64,000 bases of DNA from a virus. Below are positions 1,214-44,492 of the stretch, in pieces. Numbering within the stretch: position 1 is the first letter of the stretch; the number at the start of each line of letters is the position of its first letter. The DNA is taken from IMG/VR virus record IMGVR_UViG_3300031867_000045, positions 1 to 64,000 of that record; one strand, given 5' to 3'. A program made the position numbers and the translations under genes. Under the pieces are notes generated by a model, which had not been told where the DNA came from, did not search any database, and saw only the letters and a list, made by a program, of their open reading frames with translations.

Positions 1214-1235
1214 ATCTATCCACCTTTGAACTAAT

Positions 1236-1620: not shown

Positions 1621-1689
1621 ATATACAAAGGACAAAATGATAAACAAATTGCCCTCAATATCCATTATTCTTTATGGGGCTTCTAATTC

Positions 1690-2013: not shown

Positions 2014-2015
2014 TA

Positions 2016-2426: not shown

Positions 2427-2437
2427 TACTATCTCCT

Positions 2438-3211
2438 TTACTCACCAACAAAAATTAAATCATCAATATATTTCCGACCTTCGCCCTTGAAAACGGGAAT
2501 TTCATCATCAATCACCCACGAACTTCTGCCGGTAGTCTGATCGACTTTGCGAATACAACAACTGCCACGCTTATATTTTGTCGGATAACTATTCCAGTCA
2601 ATTCCCTTTTCATTGAGCAACATCTTGATGATCTCGCTCGTATTTTTACCGTGCATTTGCTTATCGGAAAAGTTTGCATGACCGACCATTTGAATCGAAT
2701 TTCTGATCGCGTCCTGCTGCCGCCAATAAATATTATTGGCTACTTCCTCTTTCGGAATGTTAAATACACGAGCATCAAACATAGCGCCCTTTGTTTCTGC
2801 TATTCCATGTGCGCAATCCCAGCCGATAACCCAACCGCGTGAGAACGCTTTATTAAAAGCTAACGTCGCCATGCTTGCCGCTACGCTTGCACATTTTTGA
2901 ATGTTGTAATCAAACCACGCGGTGGTATTAAGTTCTTTGTAGTCGATCAAAACTAATGTGATCTCGTCCGACTGAGTATAACCAAGAACGCAACCTTGAA
3001 TATTCTCACATAGATATCGCATAGTGTCTTGCATAGCCGCCGAAAGAACAGTATCAAATGGTCTTTGGAATCCGCGAGTGAAAGTATGAAATGCCTTACC
3101 GTCGATTCTGATAATGACCGGCGTTCTCGTAGTTAAATAATTCCGAGAAACATATTCATATTTTTTCATTCTCTTATCGAAGTCGCTGTATTTGCTCATA
3201 ACGTATTTCAA
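2438..3211 (-). CDS. Thg1-like tRNA-His guanylyltransferase
   Basis: 257 aa with Thg1 signature blocks: TPVIIRIDGKAFHTFTRGF, GYTQSDEITLVL, plus the downstream acidic/aromatic regions typical of Thg1/TLP. Confidence 0.7.
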   Translation of the reverse strand: MKYVMSKYSDFDKRMKKYEYVSRNYLTTRTPVIIRIDGKAFHTFTRGFQRPFDTVLSAAMQDTMRYLCENIQGCVLGYTQSDEITLVLIDYKELNTTAWFDYNIQKCASVAASMATLAFNKAFSRGWVIGWDCAHGIAETKGAMFDARVFNIPKEEVANNIYWRQQDAIRNSIQMVGHANFSDKQMHGKNTSEIIKMLLNEKGIDWNSYPTKYKRGSCCIRKVDQTTGRSSWVIDDEIPVFKGEGRKYIDDLIFVGE

Positions 3212-3399
3212 TCTCCGTTGTAATGTTTATTGAATAGTTCTTCCGCCCGTTTCATATCTTCATCAAATTGTTGTTTGGTTTTGTAAAAAGGGCAATTTCC
3301 ACGAGTTTCGCATAACTTTTCGCGTAGAATAACACATTTTTCGCGAAATTCGTTTCCTCCTGGATTTGCGAAACAATCGTAATATTTCTTATCCGTCAT
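3208..3399 (-). CDS. small Cys-rich protein, translationally coupled upstream of thg1
   Basis: 63 aa with CxxxxxxxxC...CxxxGNC pattern; its stop overlaps the thg1 start (ATGA). Confidence 0.35.
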   Translation of the reverse strand: MTDKKYYDCFANPGGNEFREKCVILREKLCETRGNCPFYKTKQQFDEDMKRAEELFNKHYNGD

Positions 3400-3422
3400 A
3401 TGTATTTTCCTTTACTTGTTCA

Positions 3423-3497
3423 TGGCAGGGTGACAAAGACTCGAACTCTGACTTTCGGTTTTGGAGACCGACGTTCTACCAGTTAAACTACCACCCT
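3423..3497 (-). tRNA. tRNA-Trp (anticodon CCA)
   Basis: 75 nt; anticodon stem tcggt/accga, loop ctCCAaa; T-loop ttcgagt; CCA encoded. Confidence 0.7.
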
Positions 3498-3675
3498 GTA
3501 GTTGGGCGTTTTTGAGTTGTCGCCCGCAACTGTTTAGGTTAAAACAATATTGTAATTATCATGTTCGATGATTCCTCGCTGACCTATATCAGCAATTACT
3601 ACATCTTCGTTATCCGTTACGGTAAGAGGTAAAACATGATAATAAAACTATTCAGTTCAATGAGTTATGAACCGA

Positions 3676-3752
3676 TGGTGACTGCGGAGGGAATCGAACC
3701 CTCACTCTCCACCTTGAAGGGGTGGCGACTTATACCGTTCGTCTACGCAGCC
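3676..3752 (-). tRNA. tRNA-Glu (anticodon TTC), with an unusual C33
   Basis: 77 nt; anticodon stem ccacc/ggtgg, loop ccTTCaa; T-arm gaggg-ttcgatt-ccctc; CCA encoded. Confidence 0.5.
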
Positions 3753-3946
3753 ACATATGTCCTCGTCTTTCCGAGGTGCCACTTATTATTGGATTCCAAC
3801 CCCCAACGTTAATAAGAAACGCGGATGGTTTTTCTGGAATTAGAGGACATAACCATCAACCTCTTAACATTCTCTGCATACGGATTTGCACCGTTTCTCC
3901 ATCTTTTCTTCGATGGCGTTTTACCTTATAAACTATATAACAGAGA

Positions 3947-4022
3947 TGGTAGCTCTGGCGGGAGTCGAACCCAGCGTCACACGATTGAGAGCCGCGTATC
4001 TTAACCGCTTGACTACAGAGCC
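3947..4022 (-). tRNA. tRNA, anticodon tentatively CTC (Glu)
   Basis: 76 nt; D-arm gtca...agcggtta; anticodon stem cgcgg/tcgtg (two G-U pairs), loop ctCTCaa; T-loop ttcgact; ACCA encoded. Confidence 0.4.
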
Positions 4023-4239
4023 ATATAGATTATCCAACAACCGCCGTTAATTAGTGGCGACCCGATTTTTACGTTTATCGGAAAACGCTTTTTTGATCGG
4101 CAATTTATTAATCGCATAAGCCTTATAGCGATAATCTCTGTTGTTGGCTTTTGCCGTCTTTCCAGCTGTCGTCGATGGTTTCATTCCGAATCCAAGAATA
4201 AAACCAAGAGAAGAAATTTAAAATGAACTTAGCGGTTCA

Positions 4240-4692
4240 TGGTGGAGCTGGTGGGTGTCGAACCCACGTCCAAAATTCATACTCAAATTAACTATTTTTA
4301 CGCAATAGACTAATTTTCACTGAATCCGTATTAGTCAAACGCTGGGTTCATTCAAATAGGTCGCCAGTTACCTTTGGGAATGTAAAGGTTTATACTTTAC
4401 AATCGTCCACCACTTACTTTTTAGGAAAGCAAGAAAACCATCGCATGCGGCACCACTTGTTTTTAAGGCTCAAACAAGAAACCATCATTCAATATTCGTC
4501 CGACAAATTAACCGAATGACAGGTGTTTACCGGAATCTGGATCAAGCCGCAGTTCTCTTAGAGAGAGCAGCGACAAGAGCCGGATGAAATACAACAGTAG
4601 TATTGTCGTTTATTTTTGTTTTGCGCCGTAAGGTGGATCGCCAACCTGCGAAGTTAATTCTTTCAAAACCCTGTCGAATCCAATTCAGCCCC
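4240..4692 (-). ncRNA. ssrA: tmRNA (ssrA-like transfer-messenger RNA)
   Basis: 5' end GGGGCTGAATTGGATTCGACAG and 3' end GGACGTGGGTTCGACACCCACCAGCTCCACCA match the tmRNA tRNA-like domain (E. coli GGGGCUGAUUCUGGAUUCGACGGG and GGACGGGGGUUCAAAUCCCCCCGGCUCCACCA). An internal frame ends ...NDNTTVVFHPALVAALSKRTAA-TGA, which looks like a tag peptide. Confidence 0.65.
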
Positions 4693-4838
4693 ATATTATA
4701 GAAACTTGTTACCGACATTTGCGGAAAGAAAGTTGTTGGCAAGCGCACATTTTACTAAAACTTGCCGATTTGACGATGTGCTTTAATTTAGTTAATGGTA
4801 TATATCGATGCCAATGGGCGTACCGCCAAGAATGGCGG

Positions 4839-4933
4839 TGGCGGAGCGGGTGGGACTCGAACCCACACACCGAGATCGCTCGGCTACTTTCTGTGTAGCA
4901 AACAGATACCTTACCAATTAGGTTTACCGCTCC
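4839..4933 (-). tRNA. tRNA-Ser (anticodon GCT), class II with long variable arm
   Basis: 95 nt; anticodon stem tctgt/acaga, loop ttGCTac; long variable arm; T-arm gtggg-ttcgagt-cccac; CCA encoded. Confidence 0.7.
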
Positions 4934-5550
4934 ATTTCTATCGGTTTTAGACTCCATTTATATCCAAAAGCTGTTTTACTCAAACCTCTGGCACAATCAC
5001 TAATATGACCTGGTTTTTTACCAATAAATCTTGCAGCATCAGAATATGATTCAAATGTATGTAATAAGTTGCCGTTAAGATCATATTGATAAATAATCAT
5101 ATGATTTTCTAAATTACTATAATCTTTATTATTAATTGCGTAGTCAATAATATTTTCTGCCGTAAAGTCATCCACACAAAGAGGGATTGAAGCATTTACT
5201 TTTCTTCTACTAAATGCCAATGTCCTTGTAGAACCATTGCAAAATTCAATCGGTAAAAGATAACATTGATTATTGTAATATGTTCCAATCATATCAATTT
5301 CATTTTTCGTGTATTCATGTTTTACATTTTCTTTGCCGGAAGTTGTAATTGAATATGCTTTAATTTTGATTCCCGTTTCAACTTCTACGCAACTTTTTAT
5401 TTGAACTCTTAATAATAAGTTATTAACATCAAGTATAAAATCGTATTTGCAATCTTCTCCAATAGGAACACTCACATTATATCCAAGAGAAGTTAGATAT
5501 GCCTCACACAATAATTCTGTTGCTATCCCTTTTGCTTTACCATTAAACAA
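4924..5550 (-). CDS. homing-endonuclease-like protein (PD-(D/E)XK-like N-domain plus C-terminal NUMOD/AP2-like DNA-binding repeat)
   Basis: 208 aa. N-terminal motif ELLCEAYLTSLGY...DxxxDFIL..RVQIKS resembles a restriction-endonuclease-like core. C-terminal IYQYDLNGNLLHTFESYSDAARFIG..GxISDCARGLSKTAFGYKW is a typical homing-endonuclease DNA-binding module. The stop lies in the 10 nt overlap with the 5' acceptor strand of tRNA-Ser. Confidence 0.5.
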   Translation of the reverse strand: MFNGKAKGIATELLCEAYLTSLGYNVSVPIGEDCKYDFILDVNNLLLRVQIKSCVEVETGIKIKAYSITTSGKENVKHEYTKNEIDMIGTYYNNQCYLLPIEFCNGSTRTLAFSRRKVNASIPLCVDDFTAENIIDYAINNKDYSNLENHMIIYQYDLNGNLLHTFESYSDAARFIGKKPGHISDCARGLSKTAFGYKWSLKPIEMER

Positions 5551-5989
5551 ATTATTCGTTCACCTATTCGCCTATTCAATTTATGGAACTTTGCACTCCG
5601 CAAATATTTAATTTATCACGGAGTGCTTACCGCTCCATATATCCCGCGACTTCCGCCAAAACTATTATGTATCAAATGGTTGCCTTTTGCGAGCCGCGAG
5701 GAATATAGTTTGTTACCTTAGCTGTTATCTCTTTGAATGTTGCAATCAATCTCAGAAGTAGGTTGCTATCCTAATCGTTTATCATCAATTCCGTAGCCAA
5801 TTCGGAAAGATGGATAATCGAAGCCGTGAATCCCGACTCAACATATTGTTCATTTCGCTAAAATGTCACAAAACACGCTGCTTTAGTTGAAACAGTACCC
5901 CATTCTTTGCGGTAAAGAATATGAAAACCCCAATTTCCATAAAGTCTATCGGATAACCAAACTTTGCGGCTAAAGGCAGTTCGACCTTT

Positions 5990-6065
5990 TGGCTGGGTCA
6001 CTCGGAATCGAACCGAGAGCGGTGGGGTCAAAGCCCACTATGTTGACCGGTTACACCACAACCCA
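5990..6065 (-). tRNA. tRNA-Gln (anticodon TTG)
   Basis: 76 nt; anticodon stem gtggg/cccac, loop ctTTGac; T-arm ctcgg-ttcgatt-ccgag; CCA encoded. Confidence 0.6.
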
Positions 6066-6225
6066 TCGTGTGATCGAGCCACAGGACTCACACCTGCGGG
6101 AATGAAGGTTAGGGTTGACTGCGCACATCTCACCTAACAGCATTTATTATTAATCTCGTTCTTTTACTTTACTTCATTACTTCATAATCCGTGCTTTTAA
6201 GAGATTTTCTTTTTGGTCAAGATGT

Positions 6226-6296
6226 TGTGGGAGTCGAACCACACCCTTCCGCCCTTACGCGGGCAGCGTGCTATCCGCTACACTATCACTCTAATC
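6226..6296 (-). tRNA. atypical tRNA-like element (possible pseudogene), anticodon unresolved
   Basis: Canonical D-arm (tagtgtagcggatagcac) and T-loop (ggttcgactccc) are present, but I cannot fold a 7-nt anticodon loop or a matching acceptor stem. Confidence 0.3.
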
Positions 6297-6387
6297 TCTG
6301 CCACCCATCAACAAAATTGTACGGTTTCATTAATGGTTGTACGTTGTGGCACATTTCATATGGCTTTATACTCACTACTCGATCAAA

Positions 6388-6461
6388 TGGAGCGAATAAA
6401 GGGATTTGAACCCTCACAATCAGAATGGAAATCTGATGTGCTACCGTTACACCATATCCGC
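6388..6461 (-). tRNA. tRNA-Gly (anticodon TCC)
   Basis: 74 nt; anticodon stem tcaga/tctga, loop ttTCCat; T-loop ttcaaat; CCA encoded; acceptor gcggata/tattcgc. Confidence 0.7.
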
Positions 6462-6524
6462 AGATTTGTGGGAGGGAAGCGAGGTGTGAAACCCTCCCAC
6501 GAGGTAATCTATAGTTACAAATTA

Positions 6525-8174
6525 TTAGGTGTTATCTGTATTTTCCGGCAAGGTGTCCTTTTTCTGAACGCCATCGGCAGGTACTACCTGAGTAGTAGAT
6601 AGCAGACCCTTTACAGGTTCGGCGATGCTACCCACCAATCCACGAAGTTCATCATTGATCGGCTTGCCGTTAAGGGCTTCATTCTGAACATTCAGAGTTT
6701 TCATCAGCGCAGGAATACTGGATAAGGTATCGACAAGAACGTTGCCGGAACCACTGCCCTGAGAACTTCCGCCGAAGTTGATAAACTCAGCCTTGCTACC
6801 AACTGAACCCATAAGTTCCGCGGCTTTGGTTGCAATCTGCACTTTACCCTCTGTTTCGATCTTCAACTTCTCGATCTCGAAGTTTACTTTCTCGTTAGAC
6901 GCTCTCGCTTCTGCAAGTGCGCGTTCACCTTCGGCTTGTGCCATAAGTTTCTGCTTTTCTACCTCAGCTTCCGCAAGACCTTTCTGCTTGATGACTTCCG
7001 CATCGGCAAGACCTTGCTGTTTTGCAACCTCAGCTTGTGCAAGACCTTTCTGCTTGGTAACGTCAGCTTCGGCATTACCTTTCTGCTTGATGACTTCCGC
7101 AGAAGCATTACCCTCTGTCTTAACCTTTTCCGCTTCTGCTTGTGCTGCGATCTTGATGGCATCCGCGTGGTTTCGTGATACCTGCACCTCTGCCTCTGCA
7201 CTGATAGTCTTTACATTCGCTTCCGCTTCGGCTTCGATGCGCTTCTTCTTCTTTTCTGATTCTGCTCTTGTGGAGATAACTTCCTGCTCCTTGATTGCTG
7301 CGAGATTTGCCTGTTCCTGCTTGACAACCTCAACACGACCCTTTTGCTGTTCTACCTCCTGCGCTCGAATGGTTCTCTGCAACTGACCGGCAACTTCGGC
7401 ATCGGCGTCTGCCTTATCAGTTTCAACCTTGAACGCAGCCATTTTCAGTTTATTATCTCTTTCTTTCTCAGCGATAGCCAACTCGGATTCCAATTCGGTC
7501 TGAGAAGCTGTACGCTCAGATTCAGCGTTTTGAGTACGGATAGCCTGATCTACCTTTGCTTTCTTGCTTTCGGCTTCACGGCGCTTATCCTGCATATCAA
7601 GTTCGGCAATGTTATCATAATAACCATTGTTGTCGTTGATGTCTTGGATGTTAAGGCTTACAAGTTCCATACCCATGTTGAGCATTTCATCCTGAATAAT
7701 ATCCTTAACCTTATTAGCAAATACCGCCTTTTCAGATAGTACACTTTCGGGGGTCATTGATGCTACTACATCACGAACACCACCCATAAGTGTCATTCTG
7801 GTGTCGCTGATAATCGCATCCTTTCCTCTTTCCTTAAAGGAAATGATTGCTTTCAGCAACGTTTCCGGATTTGAAGTATCGGGGCGAATCTGCGCCGTCC
7901 AGTCAATAGTAATCGGTACTGATGTTGCCGTCATAATCTCGTCACCATTTGCCGTTACCGTTAGCATTGACAAATCAAAATAATCATACTTGCGAATAAT
8001 CGGCATTACGAACGCACCGCCCGAAACATGAATTTGCGGTTTCTTGCCGCCCGTTACGATCAGTGCCTTGTCTACGCTTGCGACCTTATACATTGATTTT
8101 CCGATCAGGAAGATAGCCACAAGGATAACCAACGCAATTCCGACAGGAATGAGGATTGATAAATATTGTTCCAT
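6525..8174 (-). CDS. SPFH/band-7 (flotillin/YqiK-like) membrane protein with a long Ala/Glu/Lys-rich repeat tract
   Basis: 549 aa with an N-terminal TM helix and a band-7 core. It contains an 11-aa tandem repeat (KQKGLAEAEVx, about 6 copies, also visible as ~33-bp DNA repeats at 6950-7110) and a long coiled-coil. Confidence 0.65.
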   Translation of the reverse strand: MEQYLSILIPVGIALVILVAIFLIGKSMYKVASVDKALIVTGGKKPQIHVSGGAFVMPIIRKYDYFDLSMLTVTANGDEIMTATSVPITIDWTAQIRPDTSNPETLLKAIISFKERGKDAIISDTRMTLMGGVRDVVASMTPESVLSEKAVFANKVKDIIQDEMLNMGMELVSLNIQDINDNNGYYDNIAELDMQDKRREAESKKAKVDQAIRTQNAESERTASQTELESELAIAEKERDNKLKMAAFKVETDKADADAEVAGQLQRTIRAQEVEQQKGRVEVVKQEQANLAAIKEQEVISTRAESEKKKKRIEAEAEANVKTISAEAEVQVSRNHADAIKIAAQAEAEKVKTEGNASAEVIKQKGNAEADVTKQKGLAQAEVAKQQGLADAEVIKQKGLAEAEVEKQKLMAQAEGERALAEARASNEKVNFEIEKLKIETEGKVQIATKAAELMGSVGSKAEFINFGGSSQGSGSGNVLVDTLSSIPALMKTLNVQNEALNGKPINDELRGLVGSIAEPVKGLLSTTQVVPADGVQKKDTLPENTDNT

Positions 8175-8190
8175 TAAATTCTCCTTTTAT

Positions 8191-8312
8191 GCTTTTCGAG
8201 ATATTTACTGAATATCCCGATATTTTAACCGCATTTCCAGCGGCTCTTGACTACATTTAATATTGTAGCAAATCACCATTCAGTTGTCAAGTGTTTTCGA
8301 GTAATTTCTTAA
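8191..8312 (-). promoter_or_regulatory. promoter cassette: conserved motif, TTGACA-17 bp-TACAAT, hairpin, second motif copy, RBS (drives the SPFH gene)
   Basis: On the minus strand: AAGAAATTACTCGAAAACAC-TTGACA-17-TACAAT, then ccgctggaaatgcgg hairpin, then AAATATCTCGAAAAGCA followed by AAGGAG and ATG. Confidence 0.7.
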
Positions 8313-8320
8313 ATATTTTT

Positions 8321-9061
8321 TTAGAATGTATACCCGTCCATTAATCTCATTTTGAATTTATTTTTCTGATGGAGTGCATCAATCTTGTTCTTTACTGCCC
8401 CATCTTCGCAAATGCCTGTCCGAATATACCGATCAAGCGTTTCGTATGTAAAACCCAGGTTTTCCTCGTCAGTCTTTCCGCACAAACCATCTGATGGCTC
8501 TTTATCCATCAAATAGTCCGATAATCCGAGAGCATACCCAATGTCAATGACTTCACTTTTTGTAAACGGGGCAAGCGGCGACAAATCACCAACAGAATCT
8601 CCGTATCTCGTTGAATATCCGATATAGTCCTCAGATAAATTGCAAGTATTGACAACTCTACCGTTACTGCTCTGTGAAACAGCGTATAATGCAGCCATGC
8701 GGATTCTCGCAGGGAGATTGGTAGTTGTCTGACCGGAAATATTAAGAGTAGGCTCTTTTTCCATTCCGTCTAAAATTCCATCTACGGAATTGCCGATATT
8801 GATGGTAAAACTCTTAATTCTAAGAGTATTCACAAGCGTTTCAGCATATTTAATATCGTCCTGCTCGTGGTCTGGAAGTAAAACGCCGATGACGCGGTTT
8901 TCTCCCAAAGCCTTTACGCACAACGCGGCAACCACAGAGCTATCAATTCCGCCGGAAATTCCGACAATGGCTTTTCCAAAATTGCTATTCTTTCTGAACC
9001 AATCCTTAATCCATTCAGCACACTTTTCAGCATGATAATTTCCAAATCCAAATCTATTCAT
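8321..9061 (-). CDS. nadE: NH3-dependent NAD+ synthetase
   Basis: 246 aa; SGGIDS PP-loop motif and overall NadE-like sequence (GISGGIDSSVVAAL...). Confidence 0.75.
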   Translation of the reverse strand: MNRFGFGNYHAEKCAEWIKDWFRKNSNFGKAIVGISGGIDSSVVAALCVKALGENRVIGVLLPDHEQDDIKYAETLVNTLRIKSFTINIGNSVDGILDGMEKEPTLNISGQTTTNLPARIRMAALYAVSQSSNGRVVNTCNLSEDYIGYSTRYGDSVGDLSPLAPFTKSEVIDIGYALGLSDYLMDKEPSDGLCGKTDEENLGFTYETLDRYIRTGICEDGAVKNKIDALHQKNKFKMRLMDGYTF

Positions 9062-10530
9062 TAGAAATCACCGCCGTGCAAAGTTTTTCTGATTTCTTTC
9101 AGACTGGTTTCTTTCAGCATTTCACCATCACGGAAAATAGGCTTTAACATATTGCAAGGATCATTACTTGCTTCTTCCCAAGTCTTTTGATCTGTATAAG
9201 CAATCCCGCCATAATAATCCTCATAAACAAGACAACAACCCTTTTGAGAAGTCTTGAATCCGCCCTCTTTCGGGTCTTTGAAAATGGGAGTAGGCTTTCC
9301 GTCAATCTCACAATATGTCGCCTTAATACAAGAACTGAAAGTATCACGAGTAAACGGTTTTAGAATCCCATCTTCTTCAATGCACTGGAATGAGAACGAA
9401 CCGACACCGAGAGATACATTACAAGCCGCAAATCCGTTTTCTTTGAGAATTTCATAAATCTTCTCGCAACGCTGAACGGTAATTGAATCACCGTACAGAG
9501 CTTTCACACGAGGATCGAGGACTTTATATCCCTTGCTATTAATATAACCGCCGAACTGATCCCATAACTTGAATACCGTCTTTGTTACGACTTCCACGCA
9601 ATCGCCGGAATCTCCGCGCATAAGCATACAACCATTATGGTTCATAATTTCCTTTTTGAGTTTCGGAAGTACGTTATCAATTACATTCCAGTAATCATAA
9701 GAATCCAAAACGCAAGAAAATGATGTATTCGGGTAAATCTCCGTCAACAGTCTGCGGAGCAAAGTAATTTCATCACCGTCAACCGCAAAATTAGAACACA
9801 TTACAGAATGTTCGGTACTCGGAGCGCCAAATCCAACAGGTTCATTTTTGCAATCACAATTATAATTCTTTTCCAAATACGGAATTGCGGGAACCGTTGC
9901 AGTATTCAAGAATGAAAGCAACCAACCCGCAGCCGCCTTCGTTGCAGACTGTAAACATTCCTCACCGCGAAAATCAAAATCTCCCAACGCTCTTGCTCTC
10001 GGCATATCGTCGTCACAGGTTTCAGCATAATACTTGTTCACGATTTCACGATAAGTTGCGCCGACGGTGGCAGCCAACATGGGGTGCCACATTTCAGCCG
10101 AGATCAGCGATTCAAGCGACTGAGGAAGCCATGCAAAATCGGGATGGGTATTTGTGATTCCGAACATCGGAACGTGCATAGGCACTTTCGTTCCTTCGGG
10201 CAACGCCACAATTTCAATGGGTAAATATCCGAGATTATGCAGTTTCTTGATTTTGTTGATATTATATGTATCTTTTCCAAGAGTGGCGTCCATGATTCTT
10301 TGATATTCAACCAAAATCAGGTCGAGGGGCTTTTCAAAAAATTCTCTGTTGAAGTAATCAATCAGATATTCCTTAATAAATCCCTGCAATCCAAAGAATA
10401 CAACTTCATTCCAGCGCTTTACTCTGCTCATTCTCGGAGTAAAATAAGATACCGATTTTGTGATCTTTTCCGGCAACATTTCAGCGTGTACCGCCTTATA
10501 GTAGTCGATCAATAACATCGGATTCGTCAT
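9061..10530 (-). CDS. nadV: nicotinamide phosphoribosyltransferase (NadV/NAMPT)
   Basis: 489 aa; NAMPT-like blocks (DSYDYWNVI, LMRGDSGD, GVGSFSFQ...TRDTF) and the right length. Confidence 0.75.
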   Translation of the reverse strand: MTNPMLLIDYYKAVHAEMLPEKITKSVSYFTPRMSRVKRWNEVVFFGLQGFIKEYLIDYFNREFFEKPLDLILVEYQRIMDATLGKDTYNINKIKKLHNLGYLPIEIVALPEGTKVPMHVPMFGITNTHPDFAWLPQSLESLISAEMWHPMLAATVGATYREIVNKYYAETCDDDMPRARALGDFDFRGEECLQSATKAAAGWLLSFLNTATVPAIPYLEKNYNCDCKNEPVGFGAPSTEHSVMCSNFAVDGDEITLLRRLLTEIYPNTSFSCVLDSYDYWNVIDNVLPKLKKEIMNHNGCMLMRGDSGDCVEVVTKTVFKLWDQFGGYINSKGYKVLDPRVKALYGDSITVQRCEKIYEILKENGFAACNVSLGVGSFSFQCIEEDGILKPFTRDTFSSCIKATYCEIDGKPTPIFKDPKEGGFKTSQKGCCLVYEDYYGGIAYTDQKTWEEASNDPCNMLKPIFRDGEMLKETSLKEIRKTLHGGDF

Positions 10531-11393
10531 AGATTAAACACCTCGATTTTAGATGGCATTAAGTCAATATCTTTCGCATACTTCTGCGTACTCTTGACAA
10601 AAATGCTATCTGTAGTATATAGTTTCTCGATTAAATCTCCGTGTAACAATTCACCACGAAAAACGGTAAATTCACAATGAGTTACAAATAGATATATCTT
10701 ATCCGCGCCGAGTTCTTTTAACTTCTTCGCAGAATGTAAGAATGTTCCGCCTTTACTGCAAATATCATCAATGATTAAAACTATTTTGTTTTTAATCAAA
10801 TTTGTATCTCCGCAAACATCAAGCCCAAGAATATTTCCAGTTTCCCAATCTCGCCGTTTGATACCAAAAGCGTATGGTCGATTGATCTTGCCGGAATACC
10901 GTTTCATGGCACCTTCATCGGGAAAGAATATCGTTGGATTTGTTATGTAATTATCCTTGCAAACATTCTTAATTGCCTGTTCGATATAGGGAGTAGGTTC
11001 CAAAACGGTCAAATTATCGAACAACGCTTCACTCACAGAAGAATGAGGGTCTAAGACAACCACATTCAAGAATTTCAGCGCATTGATAAATTCCGCAAAA
11101 TATTTCAAAGTGAAAACATCCGATTTTCCCTTTACCCTATCCATTCTGGCGTTCGGAATATACGGCAAGAATAGCTCAACATCATAACCCAATCTTTGCA
11201 GGTGTTTTGTCAGAAATAAGATTGCTGCCATTTCACCGTCATTCTCGTAATGCCATGAAATAGTCACGGATTCTTGAATAGGCTCGACAGACTTCAACTC
11301 GGGTTTCAAGTGCAAAGTTCCATCGGGAAAATGATCGAGGACAACTTCGTTTCCATCAATTTTAATCATTCTGTTACCTCGTCGATCTGGCAA
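10527..11393 (-). CDS. prs: ribose-phosphate pyrophosphokinase (PRPP synthetase)
   Basis: 288 aa; PRPP-binding loop IVLIIDDICSKGGTF and PRPP synthetase N-domain. Confidence 0.7.
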   Translation of the reverse strand: MPDRRGNRMIKIDGNEVVLDHFPDGTLHLKPELKSVEPIQESVTISWHYENDGEMAAILFLTKHLQRLGYDVELFLPYIPNARMDRVKGKSDVFTLKYFAEFINALKFLNVVVLDPHSSVSEALFDNLTVLEPTPYIEQAIKNVCKDNYITNPTIFFPDEGAMKRYSGKINRPYAFGIKRRDWETGNILGLDVCGDTNLIKNKIVLIIDDICSKGGTFLHSAKKLKELGADKIYLFVTHCEFTVFRGELLHGDLIEKLYTTDSIFVKSTQKYAKDIDLMPSKIEVFNL

Positions 11394-11929
11394 GAGTGCA
11401 TGACCATCTTAGCAGCGTTATGTAATTCGGGAGTCACACCCGCACAACAAGAGAAGTCACAAGCGATTTGGATTTCCGGCGCGGCTGTCTTGATAACCAG
11501 TGCGTTAGTCACTACACAAATATCGGTACACAATCCAACAAGTTCAACGTAATCGAATCCGCCCTGAACAACAGCCTGAGCCAATGCGAAAGAGCCGAAA
11601 GACTCCTTCAAGAAAACTCTTTTATCATCGTTGTAAGTGAATTTTTCGTTCTTCTCGGCAAGACGATCTCTGAAAGCCTTTTCAATGGTTGGATTCAACT
11701 GCCAACCCTCGGTATGTAAGATACAGTGTTTCACGGGCAAGTGTTTGCCCTCATTAGAATCGAGGTATGAGTCCTCAAAATGTGTGTCATATGTAGCCGC
11801 GATCTCACCGTCGAATGTTTTGATTTTTTCTGCAACCTTATCAACGATTGCCATAGCTTCGGGAGTTCCGAGAGAGCCGTCAATAAAATCGTTTTGACAG
11901 TCAACCACGACAAGTAAACGTTTTTCCAT
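11366..11929 (-). CDS. pncA: isochorismatase-family nicotinamidase (PncA-like)
   Basis: 187 aa; VVVDCQNDF N-terminal motif and catalytic-cysteine block GLCTDICV typical of PncA. Confidence 0.65.
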   Translation of the reverse strand: MEKRLLVVVDCQNDFIDGSLGTPEAMAIVDKVAEKIKTFDGEIAATYDTHFEDSYLDSNEGKHLPVKHCILHTEGWQLNPTIEKAFRDRLAEKNEKFTYNDDKRVFLKESFGSFALAQAVVQGGFDYVELVGLCTDICVVTNALVIKTAAPEIQIACDFSCCAGVTPELHNAAKMVMHSCQIDEVTE

Positions 11930-12099
11930 TTAATTCTCCTTAAAAACTCTAAAATAGCGCCGATCTGTTGATTTTATGCGATAATCTTCTTCATCTTGTG
12001 CCTCCTTGATTTTGACATACTATATATAGTGGTTATAATATTTTATACCACAATATCTTGTGCTAAAAAGTGAATAAAACAGCGATTTGATTCACTTTC

Positions 12100-12513
12100 T
12101 TAAAATCCGTTAAATCCATTCGGATTTCCGTTCATAATGTTGTCGTATTGGTTAATCAAATTCTGTAACTCAGGATCGCTTTTTGCCAACTCACGGTACA
12201 AAGAAAGATTACGATTTTCCTTAACATGCTTATCCATAGCCGTAACGAGCTTGTTAATTGTAGCAGTGTTTTCCTTTCTTCTGTTCCACGCAGAAAAATC
12301 CACCTTACAGATAATATCTTTTGTTGCGGCGACGCCAAAGTAATTGTTGGGTGAAATAATGTTCACCACTTTAGCTACAACAAAATCATTTGCGCTATCT
12401 GTAAGAACATAATCTCCGACACGGATATTTGTATCGTACAGCCGGAAAGCGTATTCCTTAGATGTGTTGAAGCCCCTAACAAAAGTCACCTTTGCGATTA
12501 AATAATGGTTCAT
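12100..12513 (-). CDS. hypothetical protein
   Basis: 137-aa ORF preceded by the conserved UTR motif and an RBS. Confidence 0.45.
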   Translation of the reverse strand: MNHYLIAKVTFVRGFNTSKEYAFRLYDTNIRVGDYVLTDSANDFVVAKVVNIISPNNYFGVAATKDIICKVDFSAWNRRKENTATINKLVTAMDKHVKENRNLSLYRELAKSDPELQNLINQYDNIMNGNPNGFNGF

Positions 12514-12607
12514 ATTCTTTTTCCTTTCTTTTGCTTTTCGAGTTATTTCTTGATTGCCTTGAAATAAAAACCGCAGGATCGCGGTCTTATTTCAAGTTCG
12601 ATTTTGA

Positions 12608-12684
12608 TGGTGTGCCATCAGGGAATCGAACCCTACACCTACAGATTATGAGTCTGTTGCTCTAACCGAATGAGCTAATGGCAC
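12608..12684 (-). tRNA. tRNA-Met or tRNA-Ile2 (anticodon CAT)
   Basis: 77 nt; anticodon stem acaga/tctgt, loop ctCATaa; T-arm taggg-ttcgatt-cccta; CCA encoded; followed by a GATC-loop hairpin and T-run. Confidence 0.7.
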
Positions 12685-12687: not shown

Positions 12688-13689
12688 TTATTCTGTCGGA
12701 AGATATAACCTCAATCGAGTTTTAATGTCTGCCGCTCTTACATCTGATGATACACCAAATTCAGAAGCGATTGATAGTAACTCATTTATATCATCGGAAT
12801 TGCGGAAGGACATAACTAATTTTTTAGTATGTTCCAAACCACATTTTTCGATAAAGAAATCATACATTCCGAGCCAATATATATTACGAAATGTGATCTT
12901 TAAATCATACCAATTTCGTATATATTCTGACAATAACTTGTTTAACGCGATTGCAACCTCTTTTTCCGGTCGTTCATCAAATGTATCTTCATGGCTGGGA
13001 CTTACAACAAAGTGCATATAACTACCATTCCAACTTCTCATTAACGAATTACGGAAAGAATTGAAAGTCGTTGTTTGATGATTGGCTTGAAGCAAAGTGA
13101 TTGTTCTCACATCAAGTTTAACAACTCTGCCCGGCAATACCACTTGCCTTGTTCGGAAATTAATATCCTTTTCTTTTAGATTGATAACTTCCGACAATTC
13201 ATAAAATCCACAATGGAATAAACCGCACAACAATTCAATTAAATCGGCACGATCATTCTTACCTTGCTTTCTCATATCGGTGAAAATATCCAGTAAATCT
13301 TGCCATTCCAAAGGCTTCGCAGCAGTTTCTAATATTTTCATCAATCCCTTGTTCCCTTTTAGATCGGGTGATCTCAACCAAATTGGAATAGGCTCAATAT
13401 TATATGAGTACCACTCGCAAACAACCGTCAACATGAGTTTCACTTGTTTATAAGTGAAGAACAAAATCGGCGACTGTTCTTTGGGATCAAGCGACTGTGT
13501 AAGAAGCACACGCACGAGCTGTATGGTTTCCTCTTTATTCATATCGACAAGTTCTTTACCGATCTTTTCCTCATACTTAAACAATAAATCATTGTCGATT
13601 GTATTTCTAACGGTATTCCTGCGGGTTTGATTATAACTTTCGTCAGCATAGAATCTGTCTAAGAGTTCTCTTGTGGATAATTTTCCCAT
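12688..13689 (-). CDS. hypothetical protein
   Basis: 333 aa; no confident motif. The central region (LIELLCGLFHCGFYELSEVINLKEKDINFRTRQVVLPGR) weakly resembles tyrosine-recombinase box I but lacks the catalytic Arg. Confidence 0.4.
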   Translation of the reverse strand: MGKLSTRELLDRFYADESYNQTRRNTVRNTIDNDLLFKYEEKIGKELVDMNKEETIQLVRVLLTQSLDPKEQSPILFFTYKQVKLMLTVVCEWYSYNIEPIPIWLRSPDLKGNKGLMKILETAAKPLEWQDLLDIFTDMRKQGKNDRADLIELLCGLFHCGFYELSEVINLKEKDINFRTRQVVLPGRVVKLDVRTITLLQANHQTTTFNSFRNSLMRSWNGSYMHFVVSPSHEDTFDERPEKEVAIALNKLLSEYIRNWYDLKITFRNIYWLGMYDFFIEKCGLEHTKKLVMSFRNSDDINELLSIASEFGVSSDVRAADIKTRLRLYLPTE

Positions 13690-13756
13690 AACAACACCTC
13701 ATTTAATACGATTATAGCAATATAATTCACCATTGTCAAGAAATAAATCGAAAAAA

Positions 13757-14125
13757 TCAGTGAACCAAGATAGGAAATTGTATGCAGATAGCGTCTGTAA
13801 TATGTGTCAGAATCGCATTGTCCGCAATTTCTCCGATACACTTATCTAATCTTTCGATGTTTACGGTCTGAATCTGCTCGATCAACAATGTACTCGGCGC
13901 TTTCAGCCCGTATTCATTGTAATCCCACAATTCAACGTGTACCGGCAACTTCTTCTTGCTCATTCTCGATGTAATGGGAATGACATTGAGCGTAGTGCTA
14001 TATGTATTATTTTTGTTGTTGGAGAGGATAAAGACAGGTCTATATCCGCCCTGTACGCTACCCTCCGAAGTAAGGTAGCATAGCCAGATTTCGCCGCAGC
14101 GAGGTCTTGTGTTTGAGCGCAGCAT
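13757..14125 (-). CDS. MazF/PemK/Kid-family endoribonuclease toxin, with no antitoxin ORF
   Basis: 122 aa; GEIWLCYLTSEGSVQGGYRPVFILSNN...TTLNVIPITSRM...PVHVEL...LKAPSTLLIEQIQTVNIERL matches the PemK/MazF fold signature. Confidence 0.6.
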   Translation of the reverse strand: MLRSNTRPRCGEIWLCYLTSEGSVQGGYRPVFILSNNKNNTYSTTLNVIPITSRMSKKKLPVHVELWDYNEYGLKAPSTLLIEQIQTVNIERLDKCIGEIADNAILTHITDAICIQFPILVH

Positions 14126-14276
14126 AATTCCGTACCACCTTATGATAAAATATGTAAGAAATCATAGGACTGGAACTACACAACTCGCCCTGAGTGCTGT
14201 TATGAAATTGTTATTCGGGCTTCACGTCACCTCCAGCCCCTTTGGTTTCTGTGCAACCTCTCTTGATTGCACCTAT

Positions 14277-14327
14277 ATAATACCACATCATGGATAGTTT
14301 GTCAAGCATTTCGAGATATTTCTTTTT
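14277..14327 (-). promoter_or_regulatory. promoter cassette upstream of the mazF-like gene (motif, TTGACA-17 bp-TATTAT), followed by a ~150-nt structured leader
   Basis: On the minus strand: AGAAATATCTCGAAATGC-TTGACA-17-TATTAT. The leader contains a gtgcaa...ttgcac hairpin before the AAGGTGG RBS. Confidence 0.6.
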
Positions 14328-14678
14328 ATTTTATTTCAAAATACTTTTCGGATAAATCCAACGGTGTTTTAGCTTTTCCTAATTTGGTGGCTTTTCCGTC
14401 GATCAGCCGGTAGCAAAAATAATAATCTCTGATCGGCTTTGATGTAATATAGAACACGGAGCCATCAATTCGTGTGTATGTCTGCCAGATGATTTCCGTC
14501 TTTGGAATCCCTGGGATTGGTTTAGGTTTACTCATTATGTATTTCCTTTTTAATAAAGGTAATTGTTACCTCGCTGCCGCTCAATCCAACTAAACATTTA
14601 TTGATGATGTTGGATTCCCTGAGATTTTCCAGCGTCCTCACAATTTCCCGATCAAACAACCTTGTCGGAAATGTAACT

Positions 14679-15053: not shown

Positions 15054-16025
15054 TTATTTCGCAACTCCTTCGATTAAGCTCATAAACTCATTCATGGCTT
15101 CAATATGAATCGCAGGATCAGAATTTCCGGCGTTCTCTGCCCCACTCTGATAAACCATAGCAATAATATCACGCAGGTCTGCAACATCGAGCGTCATAAC
15201 GGGATTTGTAGATTCCGCAGTGAAATTTTCGCCGCCCTGAACGTGCCTATTATAGAAATCTCCAAAATCCTTGAAATACTGATCGACCTTGCTTTTTGTC
15301 AAGCCGATATATCTCTTGGTGGTTTTCGTATCGCTATGATTGTAAATGGTCTGCAAGAGTTCCATGCTGTCATAGTCATTCGGGTGCAGCATACGACTGA
15401 TCTTTCCGAAAGTCTTTCGTGTGCTGTGCGTTCCAATATTGTATTCAATCCCGCAATTTTCCGCTGCACGTTTCAGCGCTTTTCTCCAACCATCGGGAGA
15501 AAGAACGTTGCCTTTTCCAGTTCCCGAAAGCTGCATGAATACAAATCCGTGATAGTTTTCCGCAGATGGATCACAGCCCGTCTTTTCGAGATACAGATTA
15601 ATGGCGTCCTTGCAAGCCTGATTGATATAAGGATTCGCCAGTTTGTCGGTCTTGTCCTCTACGATTTCCATTAATTCCGTGCGAAATTTTCCGTTTTTCG
15701 GATTAAAGAAATGTTCCCATGTCAAGCTCAGAGTATCACCGACACGACGAGCCATATTCAAAGAAATCACAAACAGCATATAATGAAGCCATGATTTGTT
15801 TTCAATAAAGTAATTCATCATTTTCCGCAAATCCGCGACTTCAAATGCGAATACTTCCGACTTCTTGCCCTTCTGCTTGTTTTGCTTGATCTTCTTGGGC
15901 TTGCCGTCCTTACGAAGTTTCGGGGCATTTTCCGGCTGAGGATCAACAGGCATTTCGGTAAAGAAAGTCTGTCCGGGAAAAAGTGGTGATGTTACCATAA
16001 CGGTATTAGTCTGAATATTTTTCAT
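15054..16025 (-). CDS. int: tyrosine-type site-specific recombinase (phage integrase)
   Basis: 323 aa; box I ARRVGDTLSLTWEHF, box II/III HSTRKTF...LLQTIYNHSDTKTTKRYI (R-H-R-Y catalytic residues); basic N-terminal arm. Confidence 0.75.
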   Translation of the reverse strand: MKNIQTNTVMVTSPLFPGQTFFTEMPVDPQPENAPKLRKDGKPKKIKQNKQKGKKSEVFAFEVADLRKMMNYFIENKSWLHYMLFVISLNMARRVGDTLSLTWEHFFNPKNGKFRTELMEIVEDKTDKLANPYINQACKDAINLYLEKTGCDPSAENYHGFVFMQLSGTGKGNVLSPDGWRKALKRAAENCGIEYNIGTHSTRKTFGKISRMLHPNDYDSMELLQTIYNHSDTKTTKRYIGLTKSKVDQYFKDFGDFYNRHVQGGENFTAESTNPVMTLDVADLRDIIAMVYQSGAENAGNSDPAIHIEAMNEFMSLIEGVAK

Positions 16026-16056
16026 AGTTTTAACCCCCTATGTATTCATTGACTAA

Positions 16057-21238: not shown

Positions 21239-22243
21239 TTTTTTCTTGAAAAAAATGCTCAATAATTGAACACTTTTTCAGCCGATTTTGACGATAAAAT
21301 TACCATTTGATTTACATTGTTATTTGCTTAGTTTTTTATATATTCTTTCTCTATATTGGTTTACTTTCTTTTGGTATATATTTCCTTTGACCATATCCAA
21401 TATTCTCAAAGCATCATTATACCTCTTTCCAGAAATGTAAAGATCAACGAGCCTAAAAGTCCAGCTCATACTATCAAAGGCTAAACCGCCATTTTGAAAA
21501 ATCAATTCCCAAAAAGATGTGATTTTTTCGTAATCACAATCATTTTCATATTGTTCTTCCGCCTTATTGATTGCCTCAATTTGCATTTCTTGCAATACCA
21601 ATATTTGATATTGCCTCGGAGCAACCTCTTTAAATCTTTCTAATTCTGATTTATCTAATGGGAGTATTCTTTTTACTTTTTTACCAATATACATATTTCT
21701 TACCTCTTATATTCATAATTTTCCGCGCCGGTGATATACTTCTGAAAATCTACGCGAATCAAATCATCGTTTCCGATCTTTTTCACTCCGCTGCCGAATG
21801 CAATTCTTCCGTTTGCTCCGACAAAGTTAATTGTCTTGTTTCCATTCACCGCCATAATCTCGGCATAACATCTTTCTGTCGGCTTTGCGCCGTCGCAAAA
21901 GGTGAATCCCTCGTCCTCGGCAAGCTGCATAAACTTTTCGCCGATTGCCACGTTTGCAAGATATACATATACTCTGCCGTTTTTCTTGCTTAATTCTTCG
22001 ATTGTTCTCATTGATATTTTCCTTTCAAAATAGAATTTTCGTAAAATAAAATCCTATCTTAACCGATAGGATATATCTCACTCCTATCGGTCAAGCATTA
22101 CCACCTTGCCTATTTATCGTCAGATTTTCCGCAAATTGCCGATTGATATGGTAGGTTGGTGTACGGTCATCGGGCTTGCCCCTCGCGTACTCTATATAGG
22201 ACTTATTCTATTACTTATAGTATAGCCAGATTTTCCGGTATTG

Positions 22244-44489: not shown

Positions 44490-44492
44490 TAT

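Follow-up and report, generated by a model that had tools for sequence, protein, structure and literature searches.

We describe a phage gene of the PemK/MazF toxin family for which no antitoxin gene was recognised and whose own messenger RNA probably keeps the encoded protein in check. Two copies of UACAUA are evolutionarily fixed in this message, one by its position in the leader and the other by codon choice. We give roughly even odds (about 0.5) to the full reading, in which an antitoxin-less phage MazF-family endoribonuclease, self-limited by its own mRNA, works within an SPβ-like lysis-lysogeny module. Toxin-antitoxin biology assumes that a MazF needs a neutralising partner; if our reading is true, a widespread and conserved family manages without one, and the enzyme's target, written into its own message, replaces the antitoxin.

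The mazF gene and the UACAUA sites of its message

The window, i.e., the whole 64,000 nt (64 kb) stretch of DNA analysed here, harbors terminase and portal genes that indicate its phage origin, and no close DNA relative was found among deposited phages. All sequence features that the first-pass annotation had named were found again at the same coordinates. The coding region and the two UACAUA copies lie as follows:

13757..14125, − strand: mazF/pemK-family ORF, 122 aa, ATG start (Pfam PF02452, homologues, residues)
14151..14156, − strand: leader UACAUA (context UUACAUA), candidate MazF cut site U^ACAUA (conservation in relatives)
14001..14006, − strand: second UACAUA, in the ORF at codons Asn40-Thr41-Tyr42 (AAU ACA UAU) (conservation, codon choice)

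The 122-aa product is a member of the PemK/MazF family, as had been proposed from its sequence: it matches Pfam PF02452 PemK_toxin (E=5.5e-21, 75.3 bits against a cut-off of 23.1, profile positions 2-108 of 109) and PHROG 1936 'MazF-like growth inhibitor' (E=7e-23). Among solved structures in the PDB, S. aureus MazF and B. subtilis EndoA, both UACAU(A)-specific, come closest to it (E ~5e-17). We found 283 homologues; the family is 53-81% identical and is carried on phage contigs of 100-190 kb, the carrier here being a large gut or rumen phage. The counts over relatives reported throughout are drawn from kindred sequences, with statistics that carry no correction for phylogeny.

The leader copy of UACAUA lies 31 nt 5′ of the ATG and ~10 nt 5′ of the Shine-Dalgarno (SD) sequence in the window. 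Among 48 non-redundant relatives, 34 present the hexamer 25-36 nt 5′ of the ATG, while ~4% would be expected to have it per 75 positions (background 5.2e-4/nt). Ranking all 4096 hexamers in these leaders returned UACAUA at the top, with 35/48 against an average of 2.1 for 59 hexamers of the same composition. It is the most conserved leader element and persists although the leaders form structurally different classes that can no longer be aligned. The ORF copy at codons 40-42 is found in 28 of the 48 relatives, where synonymous shuffling gives 11.3±2.8, and the Thr41 codon is ACA in 34/35 cases vs. 41% elsewhere (p ~1e-12, uncorrected for phylogeny). Around one quarter of the relatives carry neither site, so the feedback proposed below would not be universal. 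Outside the family, other MazFs on viral contigs, with the canonical GSEQGG loop, present UACAUA between −70 and −3 in 12/37 cases vs. ~4% expected, and in their leaders the hexamer is as frequent as SD hexamers.

The MazF enzymes of B. subtilis, L. monocytogenes and S. aureus make a strict 6-mer cut, U^ACAUA (bioRxiv 10.64898/2026.08.06.743204), and the phage MazF would cut the same sequence as these nearest characterised relatives do. While accumulating, it would cleave its own message at both the leader site and the ORF site, a negative feedback that would keep free toxin tolerably low, with a low basal translation rate contributed by the structured leader. We infer this specificity from the relatives and from the conserved sites in the mRNA; with only ~40% identity to the UACAUA-specific enzymes, the specificity of the phage protein could differ.

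Self-cleavage of this kind has precedents, namely the post-transcriptional autoregulation of E. coli mazF (PMC5888573) and a cut made by S. aureus MazF inside the mazF mRNA (PMC7470975). The proposed logic is the same, an RNase limiting itself via its own message, but in those species it supplements control by an antitoxin and acts at sites of undemonstrated conservation, whereas in the phage gene, for which self-cleavage is proposed, the sites are evolutionarily fixed and no antitoxin was found.

The residues of the protein bear on whether it is an active nuclease. G22, R29, P30 and T52 align to B. subtilis G18, R25, P26 and T48 (roles of the catalytic and RNA-contact residues in PMC8634880) and do not vary among 31 family members. 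On the other hand, the loop Glu (E20 in B. subtilis, E24 in E. coli) is replaced by Val or Ile in 31/31 aligned members, with Val24 in the window copy, so that the GSEQGG of S. aureus MazF aligns to GSVQGG. Since E20A and E24A mutants lose most activity and are nearly inactive (PMC8634880), the phage MazF may be a weak or inactive nuclease, and cleavage, sequence specificity and toxicity are put forward here as properties that it may have. Compared with the Firmicutes MazEF systems (B. subtilis EndoA/MazF, S. aureus MazF), it belongs to the same family, keeps the catalytic Arg and Thr and the RNA-contact Gly and Pro, and bears in its mRNA exactly the hexamer that they cut; unlike them, it has no mazE, a strong promoter of its own, a long structured leader, the Glu to Val/Ile change and a place in a conserved phage module.

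Neighbouring genes and UACAUA across the phage

The mazF locus is conserved between an integrase-like gene and a gene whose predicted fold best matches YopR/SroF, the repressors of SPβ/phi3T:

12688..13689, − strand: downstream neighbour (C3), 333 aa, predicted integrase-fold protein of YopR/SroF type (model, Foldseek)
15054..16025, − strand: upstream neighbour (C2), 323 aa, tyrosine-recombinase-like (Pfam Phage_integrase E=1.6e-12; PHROG 216 integrase)

C3 follows mazF in 37 loci and has its own promoter (13739-13711, 12/12 consensus). Its AF2 model (pLDDT 91) gave as top Foldseek PDB matches YopR (8bj6), phi3T SroF-DNA (9rd5) and SroF-Sar (9rgl), with E values from 9e-7 to 4e-6 and TM of 0.42-0.53, ahead of true recombinases. 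We thus predict an integrase-fold protein of the YopR/SroF type, the kind that marks SPβ-type modules, and its possible role as a repressor is suggested by fold similarity alone. C2 also has a promoter of its own (16085-16057, 12/12 consensus) and is syntenic with mazF in 41 loci.

UACAUA is unevenly distributed over these genes. In C3 it is depleted (2 observed vs. 11.5 expected), more strongly than any other of 60 hexamers with the same composition (z=−3.1), and the window copy has none at all. The C2 ORFs hold 1 against 5 expected. In C4, another neighbour present in relatives, UACAUA is enriched (27 vs. 5), the most enriched of 60 hexamers of the same composition (z=+11.4). The first-pass annotation had overlooked the leader UACAUA, its second copy in the ORF and the module with a site-avoiding YopR/SroF-like repressor gene.

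For phi3T, most of the phage mRNAs are degraded by host MazF while the operon with the repressor gene sroF is spared, which promotes lysogeny (bioRxiv 10.1101/2025.11.27.690993; PMC10769878). By analogy, the phage RNase may take part in lysis-lysogeny or early-gene control, cutting phage (and host) transcripts that bear the site and sparing the repressor-type gene. The likeness to SPβ/phi3T consists of a predicted YopR/SroF-type integrase-fold protein near an integrase-like gene and of the avoidance of UACAUA by the repressor-like gene. There are differences as well: phi3T uses host MazF, controlled via MazE binders and MazF inhibitors, whereas the window phage carries its own mazF; each window gene has its own promoter, which sets the arrangement apart from a six-gene sroA-F-type operon; and the hosts are rumen or gut Clostridia for the mazF-phage family and Bacillus for SPβ/phi3T. 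As a tentative generalisation, which we hold to be a little less probable than not, a clade of large Clostridia phages would use a MazF in its own lysis-lysogeny switch, with no antitoxin, an mRNA antidote and a UACAUA code that sorts transcripts: those of mazF and C4 would be MazF-sensitive, and the repressor-like and integrase-like genes immune. If true, this extends the SPβ-like phage finding to a clade that carries the RNase itself beside the same unusual type of repressor.

Across the window, the sense strand shows no avoidance of the cut site (UACAUA: 34 observed vs. 23-33 expected; UACAU: 79 observed vs. 78 expected, i.e., no depletion), so an active enzyme would hit many phage genes. 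Non-coding UACAUA is mildly over-represented, with 8 of the 34 copies in 14% of the sequence. Phage-wide avoidance, the signature of host shutoff, is ruled out by these counts. The first-pass annotation had offered as one reading a phage-delivered RNase for host shutoff or abortive-infection mimicry; our evidence points more to a regulated, self-limiting RNase that may be tied to lysis-lysogeny control.

T4 RegB is another antitoxin-less phage sequence-specific endoribonuclease with a toxin-like fold; it cuts near Shine-Dalgarno sequences and counts its own message among its targets. The phage MazF has another protein fold and another recognition sequence. A RegB-like regulon of early 5′ UTRs was considered and found unsupported, since UACAUA is rare 5′ of neighbouring genes (4/41, 1/21 and 1/37).

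The distribution of UACAUA over the phage genes would fit any UACAUA-specific RNase, be it from host or phage. It could be host MazF that reads the phage UACAUA sites, freed by a catalytically impaired phage MazF that acts as a sponge for host MazE. Such a protein has a counterpart in phi3T, where Phi3T_93 binds MazE, frees MazF and promotes lysogeny (PMC10769878), and the absence of the conserved Glu from every aligned member fits an impaired enzyme. Under this alternative the feedback would be retained, since host MazF would read the mazF message, and the need for an antitoxin would be removed. We nevertheless consider it rather unlikely: the invariance of Arg29, Pro30, Gly22, Thr52 and the EQ motif, which serve catalysis and RNA contact, argues for retained RNA chemistry, and phage MazFs with the canonical GSEQGG loop are also without an adjacent upstream ORF and also have the leader site. 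Should the enzyme prove inactive, the mazF locus would retain its value as a candidate MazE decoy.

Promoter and search for an antitoxin

The self-limiting MazF that we favour would be expressed from a promoter of its own and act without a protein partner. The features that bear on this are:

14277..14305, − strand: sigma-70-type mazF promoter, TTGACA at 14305-14300, 17-nt spacer, TG-n-TATTAT (−10 at 14282-14277)
14326..14535, − strand: 69-aa ORF (C7) directly 5′ of the mazF promoter; no other nearby ORF is a candidate for an unrecognised partner protein

The gene is transcribed from its own strong promoter. The TTGACA-17-TATTAT element noticed in the initial reading scored 11/12 consensus matches in our promoter scan, with an extended −10 TG, and most relatives have an equivalent TTGACA/TATAAT promoter at the same place. 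Promoter-like sites overall are no more frequent in the window than in shuffles, but only three sites score 11-12/12 and each of them is directly 5′ of a gene (mazF and two neighbours); this gene adjacency, together with the conservation of the leader in relatives, means that chance does not explain these features.

No MazE-sized ORF exists between the promoter and the ATG, even with GTG and TTG starts allowed, which agrees with the earlier claim that no antitoxin ORF precedes the toxin. The adjacent, co-transcribed antitoxin gene of the MazE/PemI, AbrB, RHH or Phd type that characterises type II systems is absent here. The proposed search for a cognate antitoxin elsewhere returned no known antitoxin family (Pfam, PHROGs, PADLOC, NCBIfam) among the neighbours or the 46 small early-strand ORFs of the 64-kb window; the sequence covered, 64 kb, is part of a genome that may reach ~150 kb, and profile searches miss antitoxins of a novel type.

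A partner of unrecognised type, either the 69-aa ORF or a gene beyond the 64 kb searched, would turn the locus into a divergent but otherwise ordinary type II pair. Synteny of the 69-aa ORF with mazF is seen in 21/48 loci, and the ORF has a conserved C-terminal helix, acidic and aromatic, with the pattern P-x-(D/E)-L-E-x-K-(Y/F); MazE-type antitoxins bind via their C-terminal helix. We regard such a pair as improbable. As a MazE-like antitoxin the ORF was rejected, given that it matches no antitoxin family and that its predicted fold is a generic beta-meander unrelated to antitoxins.

The structured leader

The leader is ~145 nt long, its transcription start site (TSS) lying near 14270 and the ATG that ends it at 14125. 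Its elements are:

14251..14272, − strand: 5′-terminal hairpin, GGUGCAAUC / GGUUGCAC, 8 bp (MFE and centroid fold)
14232..14240, − strand: P1 5′ strand, GGGGCUGGA, purine-rich and resembling a Shine-Dalgarno sequence, pairing with 14174-14166
14166..14174, − strand: P1 3′ strand, UCCAGUCCU, pairing with the P1 5′ strand
14172..14179, − strand: 5′ arm of the start-codon helix, GUAGUUCC, with a UCC common to the P1 3′ strand (duplex)
14124..14131, − strand: 3′ arm of the start-codon helix, GGAAUUAU, spanning −6 to +2 of the start codon (duplex)
14135..14141, − strand: Shine-Dalgarno AAGGUGG (from sequence; predicted mostly paired)

With an MFE of −46.6 kcal/mol (z=−3.4), the leader folds better than 200/200 dinucleotide shuffles and is kept in relatives, in line with the ~150-nt structured leader described from the sequence alone. 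The gtgcaa/ttgcac hairpin described with it is an 8-bp stem located where the transcript is predicted to begin (14272-14265 with 14258-14251); relatives have a hairpin of other sequence at the same place, often AGTAA-N-TTACT, and it could serve as a 5′ stabiliser or an operator.

Comparative data show that the leader is a conserved structured RNA with two covarying helices. P1 was recovered independently by RNAalifold, with 86% of cells paired vs. 24-49% when the partner is slid and with changes on both sides at 6/9 pairs. The start-codon helix (duplex 14179-14172 / 14131-14124, −7.8 kcal/mol) was assessed by a permutation test on duplex energies rather than by pair counts, as the MAFFT register shifts by 1 nt between sequences: over 19 leaders the cognate arms form stabler pairs than non-cognate arms (permutation p=0.002), and compensatory variants include GGAUUA/UAAUCC, GGAUUU/AAAUCC and GAGAUUU/AAAUCUC. 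Most of the SD and start region is predicted to be paired, with mean unpaired probabilities over 34 leaders of 0.34 for the SD region and 0.36 for the AUG vs. a leader mean of 0.46, and of 0.07 for the start region (−6..+3) in the window copy. The UACAUA site lies between the anti-SD/P1 3′ segment and the SD, in a stretch of higher predicted accessibility, the site itself being unpaired with a probability of 0.61 vs. the leader mean of 0.46 (p=0.003, 34 leaders).

This position, as a rule within the loop of a hairpin closing over SD and AUG, raises a question on the direction of the effect. With the SD and the ORF spared and the anti-SD segment removed, a cut there could increase translation instead of reducing it, and UACAUA cleavage by phage or host MazF might turn translation on. 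Yet the conserved site in the ORF can only inactivate the message, a reporter with UACAUA in its 5′ UTR fell in expression on MazF induction (bioRxiv 10.64898/2026.08.06.743204), and positive feedback on a toxin without an antitoxin would be lethal. Activation by cleavage is therefore quite improbable in our view, somewhat more so than an unrecognised protein partner.

The first-pass annotation had also suggested an RNA or micro-peptide antitoxin. The leader, conserved, structured and holding the presumed recognition sequence of the enzyme, could in principle serve as a competing substrate that neutralises the protein in a type III-like manner, or a leader mini-ORF could encode the antidote, but both are very improbable: the tandem RNA repeats followed by a terminator 5′ of the toxin that define ToxIN-like type III systems are absent (no tandem repeats in 13600-14600, no terminator-like site on the − strand of the leader), there is one site per leader, and none of 23 leaders shares an ORF conserved in position, length or sequence. 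The 26-codon mini-ORF named in that annotation does exist, though not as part of the leader, since it starts at 14291, inside the −35/−10 spacer, and hence upstream of the TSS of the mazF promoter, and relatives do not conserve it.

Returning to self-limitation through the message, the leader can be compared with known RNA families, none of which matched it in Rfam. A covariance model of the class A leader detected no further copy in the window and matched other leader classes only weakly; a match at positions 2798-2906 of locus L092 (E=4e-4) is inside a coding region and was taken as spurious. The pemK RNA motif (Rfam RF02913; Weinberg et al. 2017) is a cis-regulatory leader 5′ of pemK/mazF genes and, like the phage leader, a structured 5′ element of mobile-element mazF/pemK genes. 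RF02913 had no match in the window at its gathering score (34.8 bits), in 13600-14600 at E<=10, in family loci L001-L003 (E<=1) or in 20 further family loci, and the phage helices (P1, start-codon helix) are unlike the three hairpins of the pemK consensus.

As a positive control, RF02913 was detected 5′ of mazF in 10/20 other viral-contig loci (43-67.5 bits), and 7 of these 10 leaders carry UACAUA near the SD. Our reading suggests a possible function for the UACAUA-bearing leaders of many mobile-element mazF genes, also those with the pemK RNA motif. If it is true, the recurrence of UACAUA in leaders of phage mazF genes that are unrelated, some of them behind the pemK RNA motif, would suggest that solitary toxins of mobile elements share a general 'self-substrate' design, the so far orphan and uncharacterised motif would gain a functional context, and synthetic biology would have a compact RNase cassette that limits itself.

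The mazF gene and its phage setting

The first-pass annotation had proposed a PemK/MazF protein behind a consensus promoter and a structured leader of ~150 nt. An ATG-initiated 122-aa ORF at 13757-14125 (-) matches the whole Pfam PemK_toxin profile (E=5.5e-21) and also PHROG 1936 'MazF-like growth inhibitor'. The promoter elements are all present 5′ of it, namely TTGACA (14305-14300), a 17-nt spacer and TG-n-TATTAT (14282-14277), and the predicted transcript start near 14270 gives a leader of ~145 nt. The gtgcaa/ttgcac hairpin lies at the leader's extreme 5′ end (14272-14251), and the leader fold, at -46.6 kcal/mol, beats 200/200 dinucleotide shuffles (z=-3.4). No MazE-sized ORF is found between promoter and ATG, whichever start codon is allowed. 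The 26-codon mini-ORF exists, but its start at 14291 falls within the promoter spacer. The observation is confirmed and is more interesting than first described.

Searches of the mazF neighbours against Pfam, PHROGs, PADLOC and NCBIfam, and of 40 further small early-strand ORFs against Pfam, returned no antitoxin family, and the leader contains neither tandem repeats nor a terminator. Among these ORFs of the 64-kb window, MazF has no antitoxin recognisable by known-family searches; a partner of a novel type, or one encoded beyond the window, may exist. A micro-peptide antitoxin, one of the readings offered earlier, is contradicted by the variation of leader mini-ORFs in position, length and sequence across 23 leaders, with none conserved.

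A protein search returned 283 MazF homologues, 61-99% identical over >93% of the length among the matches listed, many of them on 100-190 kb contigs. Of 84 loci drawn from viral, metagenomic and genomic datasets, 48 remained once near-duplicates were removed. Gene order is almost invariant across these 48: an integrase-like gene (C2), small variable gene(s), mazF and a gene of ~330 aa (C3). mazF belongs to the conserved core of these phages and is no stray toxin. One locus belongs to the isolate genome Ruminococcus sp. YE282 (207-kb contig), which indicates that the element is able to reside in a cell; it is apparently the 113-kb viral region recorded for that isolate genome in IMG/VR.

Genes and RNAs of the window
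12688-13689 (-), C3, 333 aa
14326-14535, C7, 69-aa ORF upstream of the mazF promoter, among the small variable genes (21/48 loci)
15054-16025, C2, integrase-like gene
51105-52988, terminase large subunit
53004-54599, portal protein
285-12684 and 44163-45886, two clusters holding 19 tRNA genes
285-357 (-), tRNA with anticodon UUA (ARAGORN 'tRNA-Stop')
12608-12684, tRNA-Met, directly after C3
4240-4692 (-), tmRNA (RF00023, 90.7 bits)
22051-22202 (-), SAM riboswitch of the early region (RF00162, 49.6 bits, above gathering score)
37227-37622, ORF with a weak Pfam match to S-AdoMet-lyase

The terminase and portal genes identify the window as phage, and it encodes 19 tRNAs plus a tmRNA; the tRNA at 285-357 looks like a phage-carried ochre suppressor. 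Among pentamers, sense-strand depletion is strongest for GTCTC and GAGAC, which occur 3 and 8 times across the whole window where base composition predicts 29 and 55; the pattern looks like type IIS restriction-site avoidance.

Separate promoters, each scoring 11-12 of 12, precede C2, mazF and C3 in the window. The early strand carries at least 10 perfect or near-perfect TTGACA-17-TATAAT promoters, with consensus promoters starting at 37636, 27688, 26434 and 25511, and also at 21216, 16085, 13739 and 8290, all (-). The spacer ACTAAAATGATAT recurs in four early-strand promoters, suggesting that it contains a site for a common regulator.

A structured leader over the mazF start

Among relatives, the leaders form several classes, by now mutually unalignable. 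For the window's own class, 19 sequences were aligned (A2), and RNAalifold, unaided, found a single helix, the long-range P1, formed by GGGGCUGGA (14240-14232) and UCCAGUCCU (14174-14166). Paired cells amount to 86% in this alignment, against 24-49% with the partner slid by 1-3 columns; 6/9 pairs show changes on both sides, and just 2/500 shuffles reached the covariation score. A second helix joins GUAGUUCC (14179-14172), directly 5′ of the P1 3′ strand, to GGAAUUAU (14131-14124), which covers positions -6 to +2 of the mazF start codon. Its pairing is kept in variants such as GGAUUA/UAAUCC, GGAUUU/AAAUCC and GAGAUUU/AAAUCUC, cognate arms averaging -4.7 kcal/mol against -3.8 for non-cognate ones (permutation p=0.002). 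Both helices use the same UCC triplet, and must therefore alternate or stack as a pseudoknot.

Over 34 leaders of all classes, the predicted unpaired probability is 0.34 for the SD and 0.36 for the start region, against a leader average of 0.46. The leader is a conserved structured RNA, predicted from these folds to occlude the mazF start region. Searching the window with a covariance model built for its leader class found no second copy.

UACAUA sites in the mazF message and around it

The sole feature common to almost all leader classes is UACAUA, usually as UUACAUA, found 25-36 nt 5′ of the ATG in 34/48 non-redundant leaders; the count is 36/48 for the 80 nt before the ATG. The same-strand background in the flanks, 5.2e-4 per nt, corresponds to ~4% per 75 positions. 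Among all hexamers in the -70..-3 windows it ranks first (35/48; 59 same-composition hexamers average 2.1). It typically occupies the loop separating the anti-SD segment from the SD, with a predicted accessibility of 0.61 against 0.46 for the rest of the leader (Wilcoxon p=0.003). A second copy, inside the ORF, spans codons Asn40-Thr41-Tyr42 (AAU ACA UAY) in 28/48 relatives; these 28 are all the copies in the mazF ORFs, where synonymous shuffling gives 11.3±2.8. Thr41 is encoded by ACA in 34/35 cases, against 41% for other Thr codons. Judging from this conservation, the mazF message carries two evolutionarily fixed UACAUA sites.

UACAUA sites of the window's mazF message
14156-14151, leader site
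14006-14001, ORF site

B. subtilis MazF is reported to cut strictly at U^ACAUA, and the L. monocytogenes and S. aureus enzymes cut there too; placed in a reporter 5′ UTR, UACAUA lowered expression upon MazF induction (bioRxiv 10.64898/2026.08.06.743204). Among solved structures, these UACAUA cutters are the closest to the window protein.

Leaders of neighbouring genes rarely contain the hexamer (4/41, 1/21 and 1/37). By statistics that are optimistic because related sequences were treated as independent (the proteins compared are 30-80% identical, so that synonymous positions should largely be randomised), UACAUA is the most depleted of 60 same-composition hexamers in C3 coding sequence (2 in 36.9 kb vs 11.5 expected, z -3.1), the 8th most depleted of 60 in C2 (1 vs 5.0, z -2.1) and the most enriched of 60 in C4 (27 vs 5.0, z +11.4). 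C4, a gene of ~210 aa (PHROG 32601) absent from the window, follows C3 in most relatives (e.g. L006 4530-5174; L017 4492-5142), and most of its sites fall at one conserved HYIEF motif, in the codon pair UAC-AUA. The whole window shows no UACAUA depletion (34 observed, 23-33 expected). Further copies lie at 3399-3404, 14536-14541 and 16039-16044, all (-). UACAUA abuts the start codons of a 63-aa ORF (UACAUAUG) and of the 69-aa ORF (UACAUAAUG), and another copy, kept in only 4/41 relatives, stands between promoter and SD of the integrase-like gene.

In a divergent sub-clade (L022, L024, L068, L069, L074 and L078; MazFs 53-59% identical), the leader is short, at ~35 nt, and includes a hairpin that covers the SD; UACAUA is missing from leader and ORF alike, and residues 41-42 are Leu-Phe in place of Thr-Tyr. 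Specificity or control may have changed in this sub-clade.

Of four annotated phages examined that encode distant MazFs, Enterocloster phage CB473P1 carries UACAUA a short way 5′ of the start codon, directly before the SD, and the mazF leader of Psychrobacillus phage Perkons contains it twice. In 37 non-redundant viral-contig MazF loci with the canonical GSEQGG loop, UACAUA occurs in the -70..-3 interval of 12 (~4% expected), as frequently as SD hexamers, and 22 have no ORF of at least 45 aa ending beside the start. An Rfam scan of 20 fetched viral-contig loci, chosen to include leader-site carriers, found pemK RNA (RF02913, 43-67.5 bits) 150-400 nt upstream of mazF in 10 (L095, L104, L105, L111, L131, L132, L136, L138, L157 and L166), and seven of these leaders also have UACAUA near the SD. 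This co-occurrence links the orphan pemK RNA motif to the MazF cut site. Rfam searches found no RF02913 in the window or in 23 loci of its mazF family.

Proposed self-cleavage, its rivals and the C3 neighbour

We infer that the phage MazF cuts U^ACAUA and would cleave its own message, a negative feedback substituting for an antitoxin; precedents are the mazEF systems of E. coli and S. aureus, where self-cleavage forms one layer of control. A serious rival is that a weakened MazF decoys host MazE and the UACAUA sites are read by the host's own MazF, since a Glu conserved in characterised MazFs is Val or Ile in the window's family, and two other MazFs become almost inactive when this residue is mutated. 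A leader cut could in principle instead activate translation by removing the anti-SD segment, but the site inside the ORF and the reporter result with UACAUA in the 5′ UTR speak against this as the net effect.

The 333-aa product of C3 gave no sequence-family match. Its AlphaFold (AF2) model (pLDDT 91) has as best PDB matches YopR (the master repressor of SPbeta), DNA-bound SroF of phi3T and the SroF-Sar complex, all outranking true tyrosine recombinases; on this model, C3 looks like an SPbeta/phi3T integrase-fold repressor. Lysogeny of phi3T is promoted by the activity of host MazF, which proteins of the phage either free from MazE or inhibit (PMC10769878). Host MazF breaks down most phi3T mRNAs, whereas the operon with the repressor gene sroF is spared (bioRxiv 10.1101/2025.11.27.690993). 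Similarly, the gene adjoining mazF here is SroF-like and avoids the cut site, whereas the RNase is carried by the phage rather than the host. A self-limiting phage MazF may serve lysis-lysogeny or early-gene control.

The components are of known kinds: MazF toxin, self-cleavage autoregulation, pemK leader RNAs and MazF in SPbeta-type lysogeny control. What appears to be new is their combination: an antitoxin-less MazF carried by a phage, whose message bears evolutionarily fixed candidate self-target sites, in a module with a site-avoiding repressor-like gene. A phrase search for phage-encoded MazF within one literature collection found no paper, which is weak evidence of novelty.

Relatives L002-L063 contain 21 copies of the palindrome AGTAA-N4-7-TTACT, each immediately after a consensus promoter (e.g. 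L003, about 4862-4878). Its sole copy in the window, at 38877-38895, belongs to the divergent control region at 38.9 kb, where UACAUA lies 5 nt upstream of it. Candidate roles for the palindrome are an operator, possibly bound by the SroF-like protein, and a 5′ stem-loop.
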